DNA from: Escherichia coli
GTDB taxonomy: Bacteria > Pseudomonadota > Gammaproteobacteria > Enterobacterales > Enterobacteriaceae
NCBI RefSeq assembly: GCF_030013595.1
Contig: NZ_CP122768.1
Reading direction: 5' to 3' (one strand)
DNA: 64,000 nt
Shown here: in pieces, positions 1 to 13,061 of the stretch
Numbering within the stretch: position 1 is the first letter of the stretch
Layout of the letters: each line of letters opens with the position of its first letter
Translations under genes and position numbers: made by a program
Notes under the pieces: model-generated
Database searches by the model: none
Told to the model about the DNA's origin: nothing
The model's input: the letters and a program-made list of their open reading frames with translations, nothing else

Positions 1-1
1 G

Positions 2-442
2 CTTGATGCTGAAGATCAGGAGGCTGTACGTCAGCATGCTATCGCCGCCCTTAACCTCACGCAGCAGGCCAAGCGTCTTGCCACCGACGATAACGATGGG
101 ACGCTCAATACTGCTCTTATTGACGGAGTGCGTCGCTTTGCGATGGATGTGCGCGATTTAGACATAGACCTTATCGACCGCATCAATCCCTTTGGTGAAG
201 CCTACGCTATCCTTGCTAAGACGATGAGTGAAGACAGTTTGAAGCAGGTCGCGGCGGCAATCTCGGCCAAGCGTACCTCGATCACACCTGAAGATGCCAA
301 GGTGATCGCCAAGCGTGCCGCTGAATTCAAACGTGAACGTGGCCGCCTCCCATCGTTAACTTCGCCGGATGCTTGGGAAAAACACCTTGCTGAAGGTGCA
401 GCTGCGTTTATGCGTTTTAGGGCGGAGGGACGTTATGAATAA
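2..442 (+). CDS. 3' portion of a gene that starts upstream of the window; hypothetical protein
   Basis: Frame of ORF 128..442 stays open back to the window start (LDAEDQEAVRQHAIAAL...); stop TAA 440-442 overlaps the ATG of the next gene (ATGAATAA), suggesting a co-translated pair. Confidence 0.5.
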   Translation, partial: LDAEDQEAVRQHAIAALNLTQQAKRLATDDNDGTLNTALIDGVRRFAMDVRDLDIDLIDRINPFGEAYAILAKTMSEDSLKQVAAAISAKRTSITPEDAKVIAKRAAEFKRERGRLPSLTSPDAWEKHLAEGAAAFMRFRAEGRYE

Positions 443-1613
443 TTCTGATTTAGACGATTTGGCAGCAGAACTTGCCGAGTTTGCACCACCTGAGAAGAAA
501 AAAGGACGTCCAGCCAGCGAGGAACGCATCATAGCCGGTTTTGAAGAGATCCAGCGCTTTACTGAGCAACATGGGCGTGTCCCGCAACATGGCGAAGAGC
601 GTGATATCTTCGAGCGTCTCTATGCAGTGCGGCTCGACCGCCTACGCAGTCTCCCAGACTGCCGTGCCTTGCTAGAGCCACTGGATCATCAGGGCTTATT
701 AGCTGGAGGGGGCGATGTAGCGGAGTCTGCGGACGAAATTATCGATATCGATAACTTGGCTGCCGAACTGGCGGATGTTTCCAGCGAGGACGATATCACG
801 GTCTTGCGTCATGTTCGTGCTAGCACCGAAAAGCGCGTTGTACAAGGAGTTGCGGATCGCAAGCCGTGCGAGGATTTTGATGCGTTCAAACCACTATTTG
901 AGCAGGTACGCAATGATCTAAGTTCAGGGTTAAGAGTGACCCGACCTTTTGGGCAGTATGCAACGATTGAAGTGGGTCATTGGTTTATCCTGGATGGTCA
1001 AACGGCTTATGTGTCTGAGGAAGGTGAAGAGTTCGATTCTCCACAGGGGAAGAAAGATGCTCGGCTGCGTGTCATTTATTCGAATGGTACAGAAAGCAAC
1101 CTACTTCGGCTGTCATTGGTTCGTGCTTTGTATAAAGACGAAACAGCGCGTCGAATTACCGATCCAGACATGGGGCCTTTATTCAGCGATGCTCTAGAAG
1201 AGAGCGATCTAGAAAGTGGCACTATTTATGTGTTGCGTTCGCTATCTGATAACCCTTATGTAGCTGAACATCGTGATGTCATTCACAAGATTGGAGTGAC
1301 TGGCGGCAAAGTAGAGGCGCGTATTGCCAATGCGGAACACGATTCCACCTATCTGTTAGCGAAAGTCGAGGTGGTAGCTTCATACAAGCTTGCAGGCATC
1401 AACAGCACCCGGATGGAAAACCTGTTTCACAGGTTGTTTGCACCCGCAAGGCTTAACATTACCATTAACGACCGTTTCGGCCATCCAGTGCAGCCCGAGG
1501 AATGGTTTCTCGTTCCGTTATTCGTTATCGATGAGGCTGTTGCACGTATTAAGGATGGTAGCATCATTGGGTATGTTTATGACCCCATGTCTGCGAAACT
1601 GGTGAAGGCATAG
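435..1613 (+). CDS. hypothetical protein with GIY-YIG/T5orf172-like motif region
   Basis: ATG 435 preceded by GGAGGGA; 392 aa; segment TIYVLRSLSDNPYVAEHRDVIHKIGVTGGKVEARI resembles the T5orf172 signature (G.VYVL...KIG.T); assignment by motif recall only. Confidence 0.5.
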   Translation: MNNSDLDDLAAELAEFAPPEKKKGRPASEERIIAGFEEIQRFTEQHGRVPQHGEERDIFERLYAVRLDRLRSLPDCRALLEPLDHQGLLAGGGDVAESADEIIDIDNLAAELADVSSEDDITVLRHVRASTEKRVVQGVADRKPCEDFDAFKPLFEQVRNDLSSGLRVTRPFGQYATIEVGHWFILDGQTAYVSEEGEEFDSPQGKKDARLRVIYSNGTESNLLRLSLVRALYKDETARRITDPDMGPLFSDALEESDLESGTIYVLRSLSDNPYVAEHRDVIHKIGVTGGKVEARIANAEHDSTYLLAKVEVVASYKLAGINSTRMENLFHRLFAPARLNITINDRFGHPVQPEEWFLVPLFVIDEAVARIKDGSIIGYVYDPMSAKLVKA

Positions 1614-1639
1614 TGAAGTGACACACTGAATTTGGCCAC

Positions 1640-1672
1640 CTGTTCTGAGGTGAGTATATCACCTCAGAACAG
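1640..1672. terminator. perfect 14-bp inverted repeat hairpin (5-nt loop) 27 bp after the stop of the preceding gene; no T-tract
   Basis: ctgttctgaggtga-gtata-tcacctcagaacag read directly; could be a terminator or a recombination/insertion target. Confidence 0.4.
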
Positions 1673-1841
1673 CACAGGAATAAAAGATACTGATTTGAAT
1701 GTGCCTATACTTTGTGATGTGAGGATCAATGAATAGTAACCTGATCAAGATATGTTACCGTGGTGAGACTGGTGAAAGTGGTGAAAGTGATCTAAGAACA
1801 TTGATACTTGGTGAGATTCTATATATCTCACTATGAAGTGG

Positions 1842-2261
<420 letters not shown>

Positions 2262-2448
2262 GTAAGCGTCGTCTGAGTACCGTCTGGTCCCGAATCCAGG
2301 ATCCTGTAACTTAAGCACCCACTTATTTTGCAGGTGGACACCTCATGCGCACCAAAGAACGACTCCCCCGGAAACGCTATTCTCCTGAATTTAAAATGGA
2401 ACTGGTCAGGCTGGCCCTTGAACAAGATATCACGAACGGTGCAATAGT

Positions 2449-4171
2449 GGTTCTTCCGCAACTTGGGTGGAAGAAAATGGATGAAACTTTCTGGTGAACA
2501 AGGATCTAAGCTGTTTTAAGTTATGGGCAACGCAATGCACTCTCTTAAGACACTTCTACAGTTACCTTGCGGATGGCGATGCAGTCGACAAATTATTAGC
2601 TCTGACGGTATCACCCTCCATCTCCACGGAAAACGCAAAACAGCACAATGTCCTGAATGCTCTAAGCGTAGCGACTCTGTTCATAGTTCTCGTCGGCGCC
2701 GGATACAGCATCTACCCTGCTCCGGGCAGACGCTATGGCTTGTATTTTCCGTCCGCCACTGGTACTGCCGTAACCCGGCTTGTTCACGTAAAATTTTTGC
2801 CGAGTCGCTTGCTCCCTTCGCCGGTTCACACCAGCAGTCTTCACAGGCGTTACAAAATTTACAACGTCAACTGGGATTAATAGCTGGAGGTGAGGCTGGA
2901 AAACGGGCTGCAACGGCAGCGGGTCTCCGTTGCAGTGCTGATACTCTTCTTCGCAGGGTTATCAATACCCCGGAGACGAAACAGTCAGGCGCGCCTCATG
3001 TCGGTATTGATGAGTGGGCGTGGCATCGGGGCCACTGCTGCGGTATGTTAATAGTCAATCTTGATACTCACCGTCCCCTCGTCCTGCTTCCCGGCCGTGA
3101 TCAGCGTACGCTGGCGACCTGGTTCAGAAAATATCCGGAAATACAGGTTGTCTCGCGTGATCGCAGTGGAGTCTATGCGACAGCAGCACGTGAAGGTGCA
3201 CCTCAGGCCAGACAGGTGGCCGATCGATGGCACCTGCTAAAAAATATTGGTGATGAGCCTGAACGAATGATGTACAGACATATACCTCTGATACGTCTTG
3301 TTGCCAGTGAGTTGTCACCAAAGAAATCACCTGAGCCAGAACTGTCTGTGCCTGCAGCATCGCTCCGTCGTCCGGAACGCCTTAAACAGCAAACCCGCAA
3401 AAAACGGCATCAGCGTTGGACAGAGGTTATGGCCCTGCATAACAAGGGATGTAGTTTCAGGGAAATATCCCGTATTACAGGCCTGTCGCGTGTGACAGTC
3501 AGTCGCTGAGTACGTTCAGGAACATTCCCTGAAATGTCAACCCGACCTCCAAAGCGAGGGCTTTTGGACCCATGGAGGGAGTGGTTAAAAGAGCAACGAG
3601 AAAGTGGGAATTATAACGCCAGCCGGATAATGGCGGGAAATGGTGGTCCGGGGGTTTACAGGCAGTGAAACCATTGTCAGGGATACTGTTGCCAAATGGC
3701 GTAAAGGCTGGATCCCACCGGTTACTACTGCCGTCAGACTTCCTTCAGTGTCCCGGGTAAGGCGCTGGTTGATGCCCTGGAGAATAATCAGGGATGAAGA
3801 AAATTATGCTTCCCGATTTATTAGTCTGATGTGTGAAAAAGAACCGGAGCTGAAAATAGCGCAGCAACTGGTACTCGAGTTCTACCGTATTCTGAAAACC
3901 CAAAATAAATCACAGCTTAGCAGCTGGTTCACTCGAGTCCACGAAAGCGGTTCAGCAGAACTTCGGCGCGTGGCTGCGGGGATGGAAGCTGATGCTGCGG
4001 CTATATGTGAGGCAATCAGCAGTCGCTGGAGTAATGGTGTTGTCGAAGGTCATGTAAATCGCCTGAAGATGTTGAAACGCCAGATGTATGGTCGAGCCGG
4101 ATTTGAACTGCTCAGGCAGAGGGTCATGAGTCCACTGGCATGAAAATCTCCACCCAAGTTGCGGAAGAACC
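2449..4171 (+). mobile_element. ISL3-family insertion sequence with ~24-bp terminal inverted repeats, nested inside the IS66 orfA
   Basis: Left end ggttcttccgcaacttgggtggaag (2449-2473) is the reverse complement of the right end ctccacccaagttgcggaagaacc (4148-4171); the transposase reading frames lie between. Confidence 0.7.
2523..4143 (+). pseudogene. ISL3-family transposase, disrupted (at least two frame changes between 3509 and 3640)
   Basis: N-terminal zinc-finger-like CPEC...C..PAC, central GIDEWAWHRGHCCGMLIVNLD...VSRDRSGVY...VADRWHLLKN, C-terminal SNGVVEGHVNRLKMLKRQMYGRAGFELLRQR split across ORFs 2523..3509 and 3640..4143. Confidence 0.65.
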
Positions 4172-4498
4172 ACTTTTCATCCGTCGTTGACACAAGAGGG
4201 CAGTATCGCTGCTCTGGCCCGTCAACATGACGTCAACGATAATCTGCTCTTTAAATGGATAAGGCTCTAGCAACGTGAAGGGCGGGCGGGTCTGTCGACC
4301 CCGAAAAAATGCATCGTCGCTTCCTGCCCTGATACCCGTGCAACTTCAGGCGGAGCCTTCTCTCCCGGCATTCGAACCACCATCCTGTTCACCTACCACT
4401 GCCTGCCACATAAAATGTCGGGGCGGAGAAATAACACTGACCTCTCCCTCAGTTGAGCTTATGAGCACTGTCCTGCGCGAACTGATGCGGGGGTCTGT

Positions 4499-4864
4499 AT
4501 GATAAATCTTCCCGCAGGCACAAAAATCTGGCTGGTTGCCGGTATCACCGATATGCGCAACGGCTTCAATGGTCTCGCCGCAAAGGTGCAGACAGCGTTG
4601 AAAGATGACCCGATGTCCGGCCACGTCTTCATCTTCCGGGGCCGCAGCGGCAGTCAGGTCAAACTGCTGTGGTCCACCGGCGACGGACTGTGCCTGCTGA
4701 CCAAAAGGCTGGAGCGTGGCCGCTTCGCCTGGCCGTCGACCCGCGATGGCAAAGTGTTCCTGACGCCGGCGCAGCTGGCGATGCTGATGGAAGGTATCGA
4801 CTGGCGACAGCCAAAGCGGTTACTGACGTCCCTGACATGTTGTAGCCCAGGTCTTCTTCGTTGA
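4499..4864 (+). CDS. IS66-family orfB (TnpB-like accessory protein)
   Basis: MINLPAGTKIWLVAGITDMRNGFNGLAAKVQ...FIFRGRSGSQVKLLW...DGLCLLTKRLERGRFAWP matches the conserved IS66 Orf2 family. Confidence 0.75.
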   Translation: MINLPAGTKIWLVAGITDMRNGFNGLAAKVQTALKDDPMSGHVFIFRGRSGSQVKLLWSTGDGLCLLTKRLERGRFAWPSTRDGKVFLTPAQLAMLMEGIDWRQPKRLLTSLTCCSPGLLR

Positions 4865-5684
4865 TAAAGTTCACATCCAGAGGATGGATACTTCCTGTAG
4901 CCCGTAATATCGTCGGTTCAATATCCTGCACATTCATCGGGATCACCGATGCAAGAAAAGCCCATTGATCAGAATAAGGCTGGAAATTAATATCAACAAA
5001 AACGCTTCCCCCCGATGCACGCGGTCTTTTTTGCAGAGGTAACGCGATAAGATTACCAAATCCTCCTTTTGGCATAGTATCCTGATTAGGAAATAATCGG
5101 TCATAAGAACTCAATTGCAGCTGTCGGGTCCGGCTGCACGTATAGCTAATAATAGCAGTCCCCAGACGGCGAGCTTCGCGGGCCGAAACTCGTGAAGCAA
5201 AAAATATCCAGACATGCGCTCCCTGACGTGAGCGGGATATTTCCAGCGCAGCAGGTACACTCAGCTCATCACAGGCTCGCATGAACGCGGATGCATCCTT
5301 CTGCCATTCAGCTTTATCAAAATCAACAGCCAGAAAATAACAGGAATCATCTTCCAGCAACGGATATAACCCGGCAGTATGCGTGCCTGCCAGATGCTGG
5401 TAGATGACAAGATCAGATACAGGGAGTAACTGACGGTGCGTACAGTCCCCGCATTTTATCCGGGGTTTACCGCATATTCTCGCCTGCCATTCGTTAGCGC
5501 AGGCAGGAGAGTACCCTGATTTGCCGCTGGTTTTACTTTCCCAACGAAGGGCCCATATATCATCACGCCCACGAAACAACCGACGAAATAATGCAACCTT
5601 CTCGTCGGTGGATAATACGGAAACGCGCTGCACAGGGCTCGGCGGTTTACGTCGCCATTCCAAGTAATGAGACCAGACGGGCAT
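4850..5684 (-). pseudogene. archaeo-eukaryotic-type primase-polymerase-like protein, N-terminal fragment; C-terminus replaced by the IS66 remnant (boundary approximate)
   Basis: ORF 4659..5684 contains DxD-like YFLAVDFDKAEW and sGxH-like SRQGAHVWIFF motifs plus Cys cluster CGKPRIKCGDC; its last ~60 codons are antisense to IS66 orfB, so the gene is truncated near 4850. Confidence 0.35.
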
Positions 5685-5887
5685 TTTCTGCCCTCAATGC
5701 AGCTAATTCATCGCTGTCAGATTTATGAACCATATTCGTTACCTGTATCCGATCCACTGAGGCACCACGGCAGAAATTCGGGTCCCCTACACTGATGACA
5801 AAGCGCCCCGCCCTCTTCTGCCTATTAACTCAAGCACCTCCCAACAACTTACAGAAACTTAATTCTAATACCTAATACAGCTGTAAT

Positions 5888-6451: not shown

Positions 6452-7423
6452 TTTATAGTCCTTACTTTATAAAATTCACAGGAAGAGGGAATTACGTAAA
6501 TACTGAGAGTACATAAACGCCGTACCACGGCATTAATAAACGAGGTAACCAGCAGTACAGACAACCTGATAAAACTGTTTGGTATTACCTCATTACAATG
6601 AGGTAATACTTCAGAATACAGTGAGGCTCTCTTAAACAGAGGACTAGTAAGAATTACAATGGCAAAAACACACCTCATAGAATTAAGTTTAAGGAAGTAC
6701 CATTCAATCACTTACAGGAAGTAATCTGATCTTCACAAAAGTCAGCTATCGAATAGCCACAGGCAACATCGCTATTAATATTGCCGTACCATTAAGTAAA
6801 AACAGGGACTCTGCAGAGAGAGCCTACAGATATTTAACCTCACAATAAGAAGATTATTTTATACAGAAAATATTATATTTACCCATACTTATAAACTGTA
6901 ATGGAGCTATAACATACGAACTAAAGACAATATACTCTAATAGTGTTCTGGTACGTAACTAGTGTTAAATACAAACCAGACATACATTCAGTGGATTAAC
7001 TATCTCAATATTACGCTATGAGCGTAGTAACATAATTTACACATAACTAAACCCCATACACCTCCACACTGTAGTATATGGGATAGACGCATTACGCACA
7101 TACAGAATACTCAGCATAACATAAAGAGGAGTGACATTACGATAAAAAGAGACAACATAACAGATAACATAACTCCCATTAATAATACTAATTAACCTAA
7201 ATTATTTATTGAATACGAAAACAATGAAGGCCCCACCTCACCTCAGACTAAAGCCGACAATATCCTGAGCAACAGGATATCCAATAGTAAATAGTGGTTA
7301 CACCAGTTATATTTACTGACTGACCTGTACCAGAGTTTTCTAATACAACGCTGACATGGTAAAGGCATTAGTCTCCTCCGCAAGTAGCAGAGGAGACTAT
7401 ATGTTAGTCAACGATTAAGTTGT

Positions 7424-8874
7424 TCAGAGGTCAAAGTTAGGTGCGACACACAACGTTTTTCCCTCAATAACCGGTACAACTCTGTTTTGTTCATACAGTA
7501 AATCCAGTAACCAGTTGATTTTATCCTTTTTCCGGAAACGGTTCGGACCACGCTGTAAAATGTCATTTTTTTTCATACAGAGGATCCCCTTCTCAATGCA
7601 ATAGCTTTTTATCCAGTTGAAAAGTTCAAGCTCCTCTGGAATGAGTCGCACAGGTACGGTCAGGGCAGGGTTGTCAAAAGTTAACGGATTAGACAACCGC
7701 ACATACTCATTACCGTACCATATTGCTAATTCTCTCGCCATTTCTGCAATGTAAGGGGAAATCTCCCCCTCCTCACCGCTCGAATGGTAAATAAGTCCTG
7801 CCAGTCTTGCCATATACTCTGCATTTTTAGCAGCATATTCCCGGCAATGTCTTAAAGGCCCCAATCCCCCCAGCTTCGATTCCACATCATTGTAATAATC
7901 CGTCCAGATTCTGGCAGCCTGAGGAGAAAAGTGAAGGCAACGTCGTTCACCACTCATCGCCAGACTTTCATCAATAAGCTCATTGATCCTCTGTTCAAAC
8001 AAATCCTGATACTGTGATGAATAATTATCTCCGGTTATTATCCTTGTCCCCTGCGTTGATGTTGGTTGACACATCAAAAACCTTGCATGATGTCCTGACG
8101 TTTTCACAAGTTCTTTTTTTCGCGTACAAAAACCTTTGTGGTAAACATCAGGCTGAATCATCGCCGACATCGTCAGTCTTGGCTCCTTCAAATTAATTCC
8201 GGGAGATGATTTCCTGTCGATGAAAAGAGAACCTCCATCCCACAAAGTGTTAATAATTCCCAGTTTACTCATGGCCCGGCTGTCAAAAATTCCCCCCCTT
8301 CACTGGATACAAGAGCAAAAGAACGATTGCTATCGGAGTAATATTTTAACATTCCCTCTATCGTTGTCTCATTAAAAATTGTTCGACGTATCTGCGGCGG
8401 AACAGGAGACTTATTCAGATGCGTTTCAAGCTCTGATTCTGTTGCCTTGTAATCTTTACCGGCACGAATCTCTTTATGAAATTTTGATTCCAGCGCTTTT
8501 TGTTTTTGCTCCCATATTTCCTTTTCTGTGCTGTAATTCTCAACCAGTTTCGCGTATTCTTCCGCCAGGGCTTCATCCCTGAGATAAAATGCTTTCATAA
8601 ACACTTTATCCACGGTCGTTTTCCTTTCACCAGAATCAGCCAGAATCAGAGAGTAAAGATTAACAGGCCCACGTAAATTTCCAGGTCTGCACACGTCAAT
8701 CTGATTCTGACAGGCAATTGAGATCGCTGTTAATGCGGATGTCGCCACCATAGCCAAAGGTGCCTGTGTATTTTTTTGAGTTTCAATTATTGCATTTCTC
8801 ACCAGCGGTGGTAGTGCATATATCGGATAAGGATTTTCTGGTGCAAGTAAGCACATAAAAGCCTCTCTTTTCAT
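7424..8874 (-). pseudogene. DUF3987 (YfjI-like) protein split into 201-aa and 282-aa reading frames at a G7 homopolymer/ATGA junction
   Basis: ORFs 8269..8874 and 7424..8272 lie in different frames; coding-strand G7 tract (plus-strand C7 at 8292-8298) sits 20 nt before the junction; adding one G would fuse them into ~483 aa. Confidence 0.55.
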
Positions 8875-9104
8875 TAATGGGTTAGTAAAGTAGCAGCAAC
8901 TCCCGCTATAATAGCGAAATAGCTGCTGTTCAGACCTAATGTTCTGAGAAATACAGAATATCTGTAGATCTGATGTTTAATAAACCGATAAGGTTAATTC
9001 AGTTCATACTGTGTTATTTACCACGAAATATCATTCATGTTTCTCATTCTTAACACCTCCTAAAATTATTTCACTAACACCTTCCCCCCGGTCTTTTTCC
9101 TTTC

Positions 9105-9332
9105 TCAGGAATCAGCCAGAACCATAGTGTAAATATTAACGGGCCCACGTAAATTTCCGGGGTTGCACACGTCAATCTGATTCTGACAGGCAATTGATAT
9201 CGCTGTTAATAATGATGTTGTAGTCATAGCCAGAGATGCTTTTTCATTGTGTTGAGTTTCAATTATTGCATTTCCAGTCATTGATGGTTGCGCATATACT
9301 GGATACGGAGTATCCGGTTTGATGTAAGACAT
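9105..9332 (-). pseudogene. truncated duplicate of the N-terminus of the DUF3987 gene
   Basis: 75-aa ORF ...GNAIIETQHNEKASLAMTTTSLLTAISIACQNQIDVCNPGNLRGPVNIYTMVLADS parallels ...RNAIIETQKNTQAPLAMVATSALTAISIACQNQIDVCRPGNLRGPVNLYSLILADS of ORF 8269..8874. Confidence 0.5.
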
Positions 9333-9437
9333 AAATATTTCCTTTTTTCGTAATAACTTTCGGTTATAGCAGCTATTTCCGCTACAATAGCAACAATAGC
9401 TGCTATACAGACTGGATATACTGAAAATACAGACAGT

Positions 9438-9686
9438 TCATCTGGTCTGTATCCAGCAGAGAAGGTCACTTAACAACCATCCGCAAGATTTCTTTCCGAT
9501 AGACTTACGTGGTGGAAATGTTCCCTCCCGTTCAAGTTTCCACGCTTGTGTACGAGAAATTGACGTGATCTCATATCGTTCCTTTTCACGTACCAGTCTG
9601 TCGCATTCAATCCCATAAGCTTTCAAAATGACCAGACGCTGTTCATCTGTTAATGGAAGCCACATACTACCCTCCTGATATATCAA
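9438..9686 (-). CDS. AlpA-family phage/island transcriptional regulator (HTH)
   Basis: C-terminal ...ITSISRTQAWKLEREGTFPPRKSIGKKSCGWLLSDLLCWI matches the AlpA pattern (helix-turn-helix followed by ...G...W...W); position next to the DUF3987 gene as in CP4-57-type islands. Confidence 0.6.
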   Translation of the reverse strand: MIYQEGSMWLPLTDEQRLVILKAYGIECDRLVREKERYEITSISRTQAWKLEREGTFPPRKSIGKKSCGWLLSDLLCWIQTR

Positions 9687-10355
9687 TACTTTTTATTTCC
9701 GGCATGAGCATGAAATGACTAAGTTTCCCGGATAAACAATGAGTGAAAGTCACTATCATTCATCCAGTCAACACCTTACAAATAAAATGTAATACTATGA
9801 TTTTTATAGGTCAAAATACTGAATTGAAATGTTAAAATGGCTTTTAATAGAAAAAATAAAGACATATAGAACCAAATAAAAACAAGCCGCGACCAATAAA
9901 AACAAAAATTAATATTAAAAATCCATTATGACGATTTTTGTTGACTAAAATTAGGTTGGGATATATAAATAAATCCATGTAAAATTCAAACAAAGCATGG
10001 AGGAGTCGCAGGAAGGTGAAATATTTCCATCTAATTTGTGATAATCATCACAAAAATAAGCTACAACAAGCGGAGGAAAAGACAATCTGTTGCTGAACAG
10101 ACAGAAGCAGGCTACGAATGATCGGAAAATGAAGCAAATACGCTTATACAGAAGACGCAGAGGTAACTGACGGAGACAATCACAATCAGGAGAAAATTAT
10201 CGTAAATAATGTATAAAATCTCAGGATATAAACAAATGTACACAAGCTATCCACGTAATCAGCGGCTGGCTCAGGATTAACGTTTCATTTCAGTGGACAA
10301 CATCGATTCTGTCTGACAGCGGACCAATATGTAGCAAGCAGAAACTTCTGACATC

Positions 10356-11954
10356 ATGGTAACTCGGACAATGCAACAAAAGTATCAGTATGATCGTGTT
10401 TTATCCGGCGAACTCCACCCATTCCCTGGCATATACGAGGCGGTTTCCGAACAAATCCTTTTGCTCATTTTTAAAGCACGTCAACTATATCAGGATCCAG
10501 AATATCGCCCCTGGTTTGAAGAACAGCACAGAGTACTCTCTGCATTACGTGCCAATACAGAGCTCCTGAGAATCTTTAGAGAACAAAGAAGCGCTGAAGA
10601 ACCAAAGCTTACTATTGAAGAGTCTACCTCCCCCCAACCCACTCCTTCTGCTCTTACAGATGCGCTTAATGTGATGTGCCATTTATACAATGGTTTTGAT
10701 GAAGGAAATATCAGTCTGAAAACTTGGGGGGCGATGCAAGAGGTACAGACAACATCAACCTTTATCAGCCCAGGACCGAGAACCTGGAAAACACCTGAAC
10801 TGGCAAAGTTTGTAGGAGATGATTTATTTAATATTCTGACTGAATGTAAGGCCTGGAGTTCACCAATTCCAGCAGAAACCCGACAGGGGTATTGCCATCA
10901 GGATCTGTCTGTTGCACACTCCTGCACCTCAGAGTTACTGGCACACCTGAATCAATATCATGAAATTGATGAATCAGCAATACTTGCCAGAGTTATTGGT
11001 ATAACAGTTAACGGATTCTACAAGAAAAATAATACAGACCTTCCAGAATGGCTATCCCCCTTTAAAGAGGAACATAAAATATTCAGAGATTGTCCGGAGC
11101 AAAATACCGGGGATGTAATCAGACGGAAAGAACAACTGTTGAAAACAGGACGTACAGAATTCGTGAATAATTTGTGTCGGGTCGCCAACTGGTATGAAAT
11201 TGAGTCAATATACGATGAATACGTCCGTCTTTATGCCAATGAAATCATTGACTGGTTCAACAAAACCATGAAGTATTTTAAACCAACAGATTTTATCCGA
11301 TATACATGGAAATTCGCAACAGTTACTCCGGATAAAGATACAGAAACCGGGCATACAACTGCATGGGAAAAGGATTATTGCCAGATAACCATACAACGTG
11401 ATGAACTTCTGAGGTTGATTCACACCAATACCCTTCAGGATGCAGTAATTTATCTTTGTCATTGTCTACAGAAGGAATACAAGAAATCATCCCAAAATGA
11501 GATAGAGTTCCCAGGAATAAAACCTCCGACATCAGAGAGTAAAATTAATATAACAAATAATATTAAATTTCATTCTCTCCTGGAGCTCAGTAAAGATAAT
11601 GAGAAGCGTCTGGAAACATTTCAAAAATGGTATGAAAAAAATAAAGTTTTGTTAGAAAGTCATAAACAAAAACGAACAGAGAAGATTGACGTTGCCGTAC
11701 GACTTGTAGGGCTGAAAGCCTATGATCTGCATGAAGGGATTCCGGATAGTCCAAAACGAAAAGTTAAAGATGGCATAAATGAAGACATCAAAGCCGATAC
11801 CAGTTTACGCCTGTCAAAGACAAATATAAGTGATACGTCGCTAAACCGTTATCGCCGCACTGTTAAGGAGATTATCAATAACGAAATTGACGCATTCCTG
11901 TTGGAACAGAAGAAAAAAATAAAAGATTTCCCTACAGTGAAGATAGAGATGTGA
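10356..11954 (+). CDS. hypothetical protein, 532 aa, AT-rich island cargo gene; no recognisable domain
   Basis: Long ATG-initiated ORF with no stops in a visibly AT-rich block, preceded by ~670 bp of AT-rich non-coding DNA; lysine-rich C-terminal third. Confidence 0.6.
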   Translation: MVTRTMQQKYQYDRVLSGELHPFPGIYEAVSEQILLLIFKARQLYQDPEYRPWFEEQHRVLSALRANTELLRIFREQRSAEEPKLTIEESTSPQPTPSALTDALNVMCHLYNGFDEGNISLKTWGAMQEVQTTSTFISPGPRTWKTPELAKFVGDDLFNILTECKAWSSPIPAETRQGYCHQDLSVAHSCTSELLAHLNQYHEIDESAILARVIGITVNGFYKKNNTDLPEWLSPFKEEHKIFRDCPEQNTGDVIRRKEQLLKTGRTEFVNNLCRVANWYEIESIYDEYVRLYANEIIDWFNKTMKYFKPTDFIRYTWKFATVTPDKDTETGHTTAWEKDYCQITIQRDELLRLIHTNTLQDAVIYLCHCLQKEYKKSSQNEIEFPGIKPPTSESKINITNNIKFHSLLELSKDNEKRLETFQKWYEKNKVLLESHKQKRTEKIDVAVRLVGLKAYDLHEGIPDSPKRKVKDGINEDIKADTSLRLSKTNISDTSLNRYRRTVKEIINNEIDAFLLEQKKKIKDFPTVKIEM

Positions 11955-12078: not shown

Positions 12079-12675
12079 TTATGCGGCTTTTCCATTAACA
12101 GATTCGGCCACAAGAACAACACCGTGTTTGTTTCGATCAGGATGTTCACTCCAGATTTCTGATTCAGGAATACTTTCCCCATCATAGCAGATCCGATCAC
12201 CATCAAACGGATAATACCGTGCGGAATCTGTATCTAAGATAAACACCTTAAGATTCGTTGAACGACGCGCTATATGCTGCCAGAGGGCTTTACCTCCTTC
12301 ATATTGCTCGTTATCACTTAATAGTATAACGCCTGCTTTTGTGGCTATTGTTTCATAAACAAACGTAGCAAGGCTAACATCACGTACAGCACCATCGACA
12401 ACAATCCCTTCAATCTGAGCAACGTCCTGTTCTTCCCAGAATTTCCGGACAAACACCCCTTCAAGCTGTGAACGACGCTGAAGCTCCAGAGTGGCAACAA
12501 CCTTATGGCGAATATCACCATCAATAACAGAAGGTGCAGCTTCGATTACCGCAGCGAACGGAGTCTTTGGATCCCAGATGATCTGGTAAAGCACACCCTG
12601 AATAGTTACTCCATCCAGTATCGAAAAACGACGAGCTACAGTAGCAGGGGAGTAAGACATTGGAATGACAGCCAT
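12079..12675 (-). CDS. hypothetical protein, 198 aa, adjacent to the tRNA 3' end
   Basis: ATG-initiated ORF convergent with the 532-aa gene; no recognisable motif; no clear Shine-Dalgarno upstream. Confidence 0.5.
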   Translation of the reverse strand: MAVIPMSYSPATVARRFSILDGVTIQGVLYQIIWDPKTPFAAVIEAAPSVIDGDIRHKVVATLELQRRSQLEGVFVRKFWEEQDVAQIEGIVVDGAVRDVSLATFVYETIATKAGVILLSDNEQYEGGKALWQHIARRSTNLKVFILDTDSARYYPFDGDRICYDGESIPESEIWSEHPDRNKHGVVLVAESVNGKAA

Positions 12676-12985
12676 TTTATGGCCTAAAATTTGAAAACAT
12701 CAGTATCAATACTGACCTCATCAGTCTGAGCATATATTGATAAAGTTTTTATGTTTACACTCAATAAATACCTTACCAAACAACTAATAGCGATGTCTAC
12801 ATTGCCATTCGACATGCTTACAATTTTTGTCAACAAGAAAGTGAATTTATATCAACGGTAAGAAGTAAACACGAGGACACCAAAACCAAATGTACACACT
12901 TTTGTGCTTTGTGTCCCCTGTGTGTACCCAAATGACAAACTGCAAGAAAATCTAGGCACACACTTATCTAACTTATTGATTTAAA

Positions 12986-13061
12986 TGGTGCCGATAATAG
13001 GAGTCGAACCTACGACCTTCGCATTACGAATGCGCTGCTCTACCAACTGAGCTATATCGGC
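12986..13061 (-). tRNA. thrW: tRNA-Thr (anticodon CGU), thrW-like; island integration site at its 3' end
   Basis: Reverse complement reads GCCGATATAGCTCAGTTGGTAGAGCAGCGCATTCGTAATGCGAAGGTCGTAGGTTCGACTCCTATTATCGGCACCA: cloverleaf-compatible, anticodon loop ttCGTaa, CCA end. Confidence 0.93.

Follow-up and report, generated by a model that had tools for sequence, protein, structure and literature searches.

Duplicated head of yfjI in an Escherichia coli thrW island, with palindromes that belong to an array family found beside DUF3987 genes

The start of yfjI, a gene encoding a DUF3987 protein, occurs twice in tandem in a genomic island of Escherichia coli, within the 64,000-nucleotide stretch of contig NZ_CP122768.1 (assembly GCF_030013595.1) that was analysed here and is called the window throughout. 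Of the two copies, the upstream one is a dead gene head that evolves neutrally, and the palindromes found in both copies belong to a family of iteron-like arrays that tracks yfjI, not the neighbouring alpA-like regulator gene. It seems probable to us that the duplication is a relic and that the arrays are a YfjI-associated iteron family, likely a cognate site, and not operators of AlpA.

The sequence-only reading of this region had proposed a diverged repeat of about 350 bp (8611-8960 and 9076-9430 of the window), and such a repeat is indeed present, slightly longer than described. A repeat search returned a direct repeat of 294 nt, 8585-8878 versus 9061-9354, with 77% identity and a spacing of 476, which two collinear continuations extend to 8950/9427. 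A gapped local alignment of 8585-8957 with 9061-9433 contains 294 matches in 383 columns (76.8%) and scores 308, compared with 19.6 +/- 2.3 and a maximum of 29 in shuffled sequences (n=500). These are two close, collinear direct copies with a similarity far above chance, as in a tandem duplication. On the minus strand the order is the alpA-like gene, palindrome 2 with the cut-off yfjI head, a 103-nt spacer, palindrome 1 and the full yfjI. Copy 2 (9061..9433), upstream and proximal to alpA, consists of a leader of about 100 nt with palindrome 2, followed by the first ~92 yfjI codons, and copy 1 (8585..8957), downstream, runs on into full-length yfjI; in gene direction the repeat unit starts 4 nt past the alpA stop codon and ends at about yfjI codon 92.

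The gene fragment of copy 2, here named yfjI' (9061..9332, minus strand), begins with an ATG at 9332 and is interrupted by a TGA at 9105-9107, which stands in place of Gly76 of the invariant SGERKT motif; past it, yfjI homology goes on in frame for about 17 further codons, to 9061. Its open reading frame (ORF; 9105-9332, minus strand) corresponds to the 75-aa N-terminal pseudo-copy that had been claimed, and matches positions 2-45 of Pfam DUF3987 with 34.1 bits against a gathering cut-off of 27 (PF13148). The Prokaryotic Genome Annotation Pipeline (PGAP) calls the fragment a pseudogene ([quoted passage not shown]); as a scar of evolution, the duplication is of an ordinary kind, one that genome annotation already flags. 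Other lineages carry other lesions: in the serX/ycdU island of UTI89 and O157:H7 (loci L002, L003 and L017) codon 15 of the fragment is a stop and 10 bp are deleted, the fragments of L015 and L050 have lost 12 bp, and that of L047 differs again. Nei-Gojobori ratios of nonsynonymous to synonymous divergence (dN/dS) between orthologous fragments are mostly 1.1-3.2 (range 0.43-3.2), versus 0.23 for the intact yfjI heads (L004 compared with the window), and the comparison of copy 1 with copy 2 gives an intermediate 0.58. The upstream copy is truncated, disrupted and free of coding constraint.

It could be supposed that the 75-aa ORF nonetheless encodes a working small protein, for example a regulator or a dominant-negative partner made of the N-terminal module of YfjI, and that the duplication was kept for it. 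Its reading frame is intact with a plausible ribosome-binding site in the window lineage, and several lineages share a 75-aa form that ends at this stop (P0001, a 65-sequence cluster; P0006, locus L049; P0009). However, most dN/dS values reach or exceed 1, the codon-15 stop is found in the commonest lineage (O157:H7, UTI89) and different indels in others, and PGAP annotates a pseudogene; moreover, in the AlphaFold2 model the break falls inside a long helix (residues 79-131) after the SGERKT loop and not at a domain boundary, indicating that the fragment is no self-contained domain. We find a function of this ORF hardly credible; should some of the duplicate still be active, that would be the second array rather than the 75-aa ORF. 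The fragment resembles ordinary pseudogenes of partial tandem duplications in being a truncated 5' piece, in direct orientation, adjoining its parent gene, and in its premature stops, lineage-specific indels and neutral dN/dS. Unlike them, it is unusually old and widespread (about one quarter of E. coli genomes), shows up to about 24% divergence between lineages and carries a conserved element of regulatory type.

Region 7400-9700 of the window, identified as part of the E. coli thrW island, is matched in 1,402 of 5,426 complete E. coli genomes, with a coverage of at least 80% in 1,291, the closest match being strain 2022H047 (locus L001, 99.9%). The duplicated arrangement is found in ~1,290-1,337 of these genomes, and the spacer between the copies (8958..9060; 103 nt, 31% G+C) in 1,337, always in the yfjI'-yfjI context and never annotated. 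The junction (…GTGAAATAATTT / GGAGGT…) and the spacer are common to every lineage examined, which points to one old event. The arrangement occurs at two chromosomal sites at least (thrW and serX/ycdU) and together with two unrelated alpA genes. Fragments P0009 and P0010 (locus L051) have a copy-1-like 5' end and a copy-2-like 3' end, and these mosaics show gene conversion between the copies. A rare single-copy form, alpA-array-yfjI, is present in L004 and L019, and more distant relatives are all free of the duplication, suggesting that the single copy is ancestral, with the L004/L019 layout as a plausible ancestor. The event itself was either an in-situ partial tandem duplication or an illegitimate recombination between two related islands, after which the duplicated module has spread into several island lineages, with occasional patching by gene conversion from the full copy.

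The second of these routes can be put in a stronger form, in which the region is the scar of a recombination and not an in-situ duplication, island A having given alpA, an array and a truncated yfjI, and island B the spacer, an array and the full yfjI. The copies do not meet head to tail, as 103 nt of spacer intervene, and this spacer has no counterpart upstream of copy 2. The amino-acid differences between the copies are often conservative and their dN/dS of 0.58 would fit some divergence while both were functional, but one neutral and one constrained branch would also give an intermediate value. The islands are plainly mosaics, in which one downstream block is attached to different alpA genes. 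Against such an origin, no full-length yfjI of the copy-2 type was found: a query with the 75 aa in 5.8 billion proteins gave only fragments of up to 94 aa, and in the 5,426 E. coli genomes no full-length yfjI is nearer to copy 2 than ~78%. The single-copy form of L004 and L019 also speaks against it, as a plausible ancestor. We judge this origin rather unlikely.

The spacer showed no significant similarity to the alpA 3' end or to the other intergenic regions compared. Its derivation from a decayed alpA 3' end was rejected (local alignment score 35, shuffles 28.5 +/- 5.1), and so was its derivation from the region downstream of canonical alpA, since a likeness noticed by eye with L020, L022 and K-12 lies within the range of shuffles. 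It contains a strong Shine-Dalgarno sequence, GGAGGTG, and a mini-ORF of nine codons at 9047-9018 (MRNMNDISW, then a stop), which shows only silent changes across five lineages; a conserved leader peptide was rejected, because L047 and L049 lose the Shine-Dalgarno sequence, change ATG to GTG and replace Trp by a stop. At position 8975 the window has an extra G compared with L001 (CTGATGTTTAAT versus CTGAT-TTTAAT).

Each copy carries a palindrome, as the earlier reading had stated: its quoted motifs lie at 9365-9376 (tatagcagctat) and 9396-9407 (atagctgctata) in copy 2 and at 8904-8916 (cgctataatagcg) in copy 1, and both palindromes fold far better than shuffled sequences. Array 2, recovered by an inverted-repeat search, spans 9365..9407 (minus strand, TATAGCAGCTATT GTTGCTA TTG TAGCGGA AATAGCTGCTATA), and array 1 spans 8892..8927 (minus strand, AGCAGCTATTTCGCTATTATAGCGGGAGTTGCTGCT). 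In array 2, two GCTATT units 9 nt apart are followed by two inverted units. As single strands, array 2 folds with -23.7 kcal/mol (z = -5.9) and array 1 with -19.3 kcal/mol (z = -3.4), and a covariance model of the element matches them at 9364-9410 (56 bits) and 8888-8933 (52.7 bits), respectively.

The arrays are conserved within sequences that are not. Across five lineages, 3 of 40 columns vary in array 2 versus 87 of 250 in the adjacent pseudogene (Fisher p = 3e-4), and 6 of 37 in array 1 versus 39 of 103 in the spacer (p = 0.02); between L015 and L047, whose upstream flanks are non-homologous, the counts are 2 of 40 in the array and 64 of 261 in the pseudogene. Compensatory double changes were seen at four base pairs, among them CC/GG to TT/AA (L025) and T-A to C-G (L008). 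Both arrays have been held constant as the pseudo-ORF and the spacer drifted. At about 3270-3316 of L017 (E. coli 28Eco12, a serX-type island), array 2 has a left arm of four GCTATTGTC units, not two, a variation of iteron copy number that breaks the hairpin symmetry.

The arrays accompany yfjI well outside this island. The same element, with the consensus TGCTATTTCCGCTATT | AATAGCGGAATAGCA, is found 45-60 nt upstream of yfjI genes down to 39% amino-acid identity, in Yersinia, Citrobacter, metagenomic and viral contigs and in the CP4-57 prophage of E. coli K-12. The covariance model also matched sites just 3' of distant DUF3987 genes (L012, L014, L034, L040 and L043) and one upstream of alpA (L031). 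These sites, together with those of L013, L032, L033 and L044, are composed of 2-4 direct units followed by an equal number of inverted ones, with a period of ~9 nt, and the iteron core varies with the protein clade (GCTAT/GCTAC, GCTAA, GCGAT, GCGAC, GTTGGG). With a strict detector requiring symmetric iterons with exact 5-mers, we counted 15 arrays in 224 kb of DUF3987 loci, versus 0.2 in shuffles, and no array in 139 kb of control E. coli DNA; the same detector recovers the origin of the element EcCICFT073, which has been validated experimentally (PMC6092414).

In CP4-57 of strain MG1655 (b2624-b2626) the gene order is the same, alpA, yfjI, yfjJ, and YfjI is 42% identical to the window type. 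The region between its alpA and yfjI contains the same array, GCTATTTCCGCCATTAATAGCGGAATAGC, with 8/9-nt arms and a TTAA centre (locus L054 2897-2940, corresponding to about 2,758,896-2,758,939 of NC_000913.3). Unlike the window, CP4-57 has a single copy, neither a yfjI' fragment nor a spacer, and an alpA of the canonical type.

In several loci an unannotated ORF of 106-153 aa that matches no Pfam family begins directly 3' of a distant DUF3987 gene and extends across the array (L034 2931-3251; L035 2925-3380; L040 2937-3398; L043 2113-2562), encoding stretches such as ATATPAIPAT…VAKIATIAVAN. The putative peptides differ between loci and the symmetry of the DNA is kept, so that the constraint lies with the nucleic acid.

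The palindromes had been said to look like operators next to the AlpA-like regulator gene. AlpA dimers bound to them might control the transcription of yfjI or excision: the palindromes lie 25-30 nt past the alpA stop codon and upstream of yfjI, the AlpA family binds DNA and K-12 AlpA is annotated as a transcriptional activator, and a palindrome whose symmetry is upheld by compensatory changes fits a dimeric binder. Comparison with other islands did not bear this out, since the palindrome family accompanies yfjI rather than alpA. The same array stands behind two types of AlpA, the window type (C-terminus ...CGWLLSDLLCWI) and the canonical one (...GWVESEIDEWL), which align over 29 C-terminal residues only, with the helix-turn-helix outside the alignment. 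When the window is compared with the serX island (UTI89, O157:H7), the alpA genes are unrelated, and homology sets in past them, a few bases before palindrome 2 and thus at the array. Conversely, L007 and L008 have similar AlpA proteins and unrelated palindromes. Related arrays occur 3' of DUF3987 genes without an adjacent alpA (L013, L014, L032-35, L040, L043), and no further copies were found near the island end or elsewhere in the 64-kb window. The site, in short, does not co-occur and co-vary with one AlpA specificity type, and an AlpA operator appears very doubtful. As for transcription, no consistent -35/-10 pair over the palindrome was recognized across relatives, either by scan or by eye.

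A further possibility is that the palindromes act as RNA stem-loops in an alpA-yfjI transcript, forming an element of processing, stability or attenuation that governs read-through into yfjI, perhaps together with Rho. The sense-strand hairpins are stable, and a conserved one-nucleotide bulge is easier to reconcile with a hairpin than with four rigidly placed boxes. In CP4-57, a very strong terminator dependent on Rho, among the strongest measured, has been located upstream of yfjI (PMC9160355), which is the site of the same array. Base pairs pass from C-G through U.G to U-A, and a tally of the per-pair table gives 28 sense-strand G.U cells against 6 C.A cells; counted as independent events, however, the asymmetry is ~9-10 versus 6 and not significant, so we rejected strand-specific wobble as proof of RNA structure. 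An intrinsic terminator was also rejected: the terminator scan was empty at both palindromes, and the sequence past the stems (ACCGAAAG... and CTTTACTAACC) has no U-tract. Nor do the palindromes belong to a known RNA family, the sole Rfam 15 match being a plant miRNA model at 22.8 bits (gathering score 110, E = 0.25), a match that reflects the presence of a hairpin. The relatives with 3-4 units per arm, 25-nt non-conserved centres, variable unit number and both 5' and 3' positions behave like iterons, and a validated DNA origin, that of EcCICFT073, shares the layout. A role as RNA is therefore, in our opinion, improbable.

The gene that the arrays accompany is yfjI (7424..8856, minus strand; 477 aa when intact), which in the window has lost one base at 8292, an A that L001 retains, beside a C7 run at 8293-8299, and is thereby split into two ORFs, 8269-8874 and 7424-8272. 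In L001 the gene is intact, and the missing A and the extra G at 8975 are the only differences in 2.3 kb; most close genome matches align over 2,302 nt versus 2,301 nt of the query. The frameshift could be a real strain-specific lesion or a sequencing error. The two halves cover positions 1-159 and 168-363 of Pfam DUF3987 with 143.7 and 128.6 bits (cut-off of PF13148: 27) and belong to the family.

According to a published prediction, DUF3987 is a helicase encoded by mobile elements (PMC5862659), and fusions to Toprim, Prim-Pol or PriCT primase domains are frequent among its homologues. The AlphaFold2 model of YfjI (55-sequence alignment, predicted local distance difference test 91, predicted template modelling score 0.81) has its best Foldseek matches among MCM2-7, ORC and ComM chains, with E = 5e-5 to 1e-3 and template modelling (TM) scores of 0.35-0.40. 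Residues ~405-477 show a pattern of three helices plus a hairpin, an apparent C-terminal winged helix in the model. YfjI is thus predicted to be an MCM/ORC-like AAA+ protein, resembling MCM and ORC-Cdc6 proteins in its best predicted-fold matches and in the C-terminal pattern; a fold of this kind would belong to proteins that recognise origins. Unlike MCM and ORC, it has a sequence identity of 8-14% to them (TM 0.2-0.4), no identified MCM N-terminal OB/zinc domain and an atypical P-loop region (SGERKT), and helicase activity or origin binding by YfjI is putative. No match to YfjI, AlpA or their neighbours came from NCBIfam and PDB sequence searches.

From the association of arrays and gene we infer a cognate site or origin of YfjI. 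Each array would be a minimal symmetric iteron array, with two units of the GCTATT type at a 9-nt period and then two inverted units, which YfjI, or a co-inherited partner, may recognise. Such a cognate site could serve for loading, in the manner of an origin, or for autoregulation, as an operator, and would recall the rep-plus-iteron-origin modules of phage-inducible chromosomal islands (PICIs) and Staphylococcus aureus pathogenicity islands (SaPIs). As in those modules, two groups of short iterons lie beside a putative replicase gene (2+2 of the GCTAT type here, 2-4 per arm in relatives). EcCICFT073, the PICI with the validated origin, is also an int-alpA-replicase island, and in its module short iterons with a period of 9-11 nt form direct and inverted sets adjoining a replicative helicase gene. 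Phage P4 is a satellite-type element with int, alpA (vis) and replicase as well, whose alpha primase-helicase binds short repeated octamers; alpha combines Toprim with a D5-type helicase, and ori and crr are separate loci.

Several observations weigh against the cognate-site reading. Co-location only is what points to YfjI as the putative array binder, and these islands also commonly encode a YfjJ/Gp2-like protein. About one quarter to one third of the DUF3987 loci examined have no array (for example L009, L011, L028, L029, L036-39, L045 and L046), the palindrome of L007 is a plain one of 16 bp with an unrelated sequence, and the loci extend only ~1.5 kb on each side of the gene, so that "adjacent" is partly a product of sampling; a scan of a genome-contig collection with YfjI gave two loci, and the additional diversity of yfjI loci was drawn from viral contigs and exact-protein look-ups. 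The fold matches of YfjI are moderate, at the TM values given above. The conservation of array 2 could be exaggerated by mosaic recombination with a breakpoint at the array, and L002, L047 and L049 carry an identical alpA-array block. On the side of the duplication, the spacer resembles nothing compared and would fit either an in-situ duplication or a recombination between islands, and the dN/dS of 0.58 between the copies is intermediate.

The layout, too, departs from that of PICI and SaPI origins. In these the iteron sets flank an AT-rich melting region immediately 3' of rep, and EcCICFT073 has its origin 3' of pri-rep, with more iterons (TCTACC/GGTAGA) and an AT-rich centre; its Rep is a D5_N/DUF5906/Pox_D5 superfamily-3 protein, not DUF3987. 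The arrays of E. coli yfjI, of putative function, are limited to 2+2 units, and their iteron sets are parted by a centre of 3 nt in place of an AT-rich melting region; the centres of ~25 nt in L032, L034 and L040 are not AT-rich either. In the window, as in every alpA-yfjI island, the array precedes yfjI on its 5' side, at a distance of 45-60 nt, and only distant relatives (L012-14, L032-35, L040, L043) have it 3' of the gene. The 430 nt between the two arrays of the window are mildly AT-rich (36% G+C versus 45% for the island).

This last stretch allows a bolder proposal, that a large, so far unrecognised class of replicons is driven by YfjI, as a DUF3987, MCM/ORC-like protein, with the arrays for its replication origin or helicase-loading site, and that the duplication was kept for its second array. 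The class would include the CP4-57-type islands present in about one quarter or more of E. coli genomes; a second array, maintained by selection 476 bp away, across a mildly AT-rich stretch, would recreate the two-set layout of PICIs and SaPIs, and the "dead" fragment would be the spacer of a working origin. We put this forward as a long shot. A PICI-like origin in the gap of 970 nt between yfjI and yfjJ was rejected, as this gap contains no iterons and only a terminator-like hairpin and a 13-bp palindrome.

Mentions of yfjI in the literature are incidental, the measurement of the Rho-dependent terminator excepted; an older list has yfjI among the targets of the regulator YbaO (PMC6237786). 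In our literature search we found no paper linking DUF3987 with iterons and no description of the array element.

The alpA-yfjI module opens with the alpA-like gene (9438..9665, minus strand, from the ORF list), which encodes a 75-aa protein of the window type (C-terminus ...SCGWLLSDLLCWIQTR; Pfam Phage_AlpA, E = 2e-13) that PGAP calls a "helix-turn-helix transcriptional regulator" in L001. Past the yfjI stop there is a terminator-like hairpin at 7369-7399, and the non-coding gap to yfjJ (~970 nt) holds a perfect 13-bp palindrome, GTATTACCTCATT / AATGAGGTAATAC, at 6582-6609, which is kept in other islands (L002 3537-3563, L004 3183-3209). The next gene, from 6451 down to 5888 on the minus strand, encodes a YagK/YfjJ-like (inovirus Gp2-like) protein according to the ORF list, Pfam and the L001 annotation. 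Positions 1-5750 of the window are heavily rearranged; with gene content transferred from the L001 annotation, they contain genes for a GIY-YIG nuclease, a DDE transposase (a pseudogene), an ISL3 transposase and IS66 TnpB, and, at ~4847-5735, a truncated and frameshifted pseudogene of an archaeo-eukaryotic primase annotated as "TOTE conflict system".

At the other side, the L001 copy of the island adjoins tRNA-Thr (thrW) and proA, and the same tRNA was located by ARAGORN in the window at 12986-13061. The first island genes after thrW are a 198-aa ORF (12079-12675) and a 532-aa ORF (10356-11954), and no integrase gene is present between thrW and them (12676-12985); in the related island L004, a tyrosine recombinase adjoins the homologous pair of hypothetical genes on the outer side. 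The island of the window may thus be immobilised, being integrase-free at its thrW side.

The palindromes of the thrW island are members of a recurring element beside DUF3987/YfjI genes, K-12 CP4-57 included, and not local oddities, and an iteron element in this position opens the function of yfjI to experiment. Should YfjI have its recognition site or origin in these arrays, they would give a handle on the post-excision replication of the very common alpA-yfjI-yfjJ islands of enterobacteria and on the function of DUF3987 proteins, together with a simple sequence signature with which such replicons may be found.

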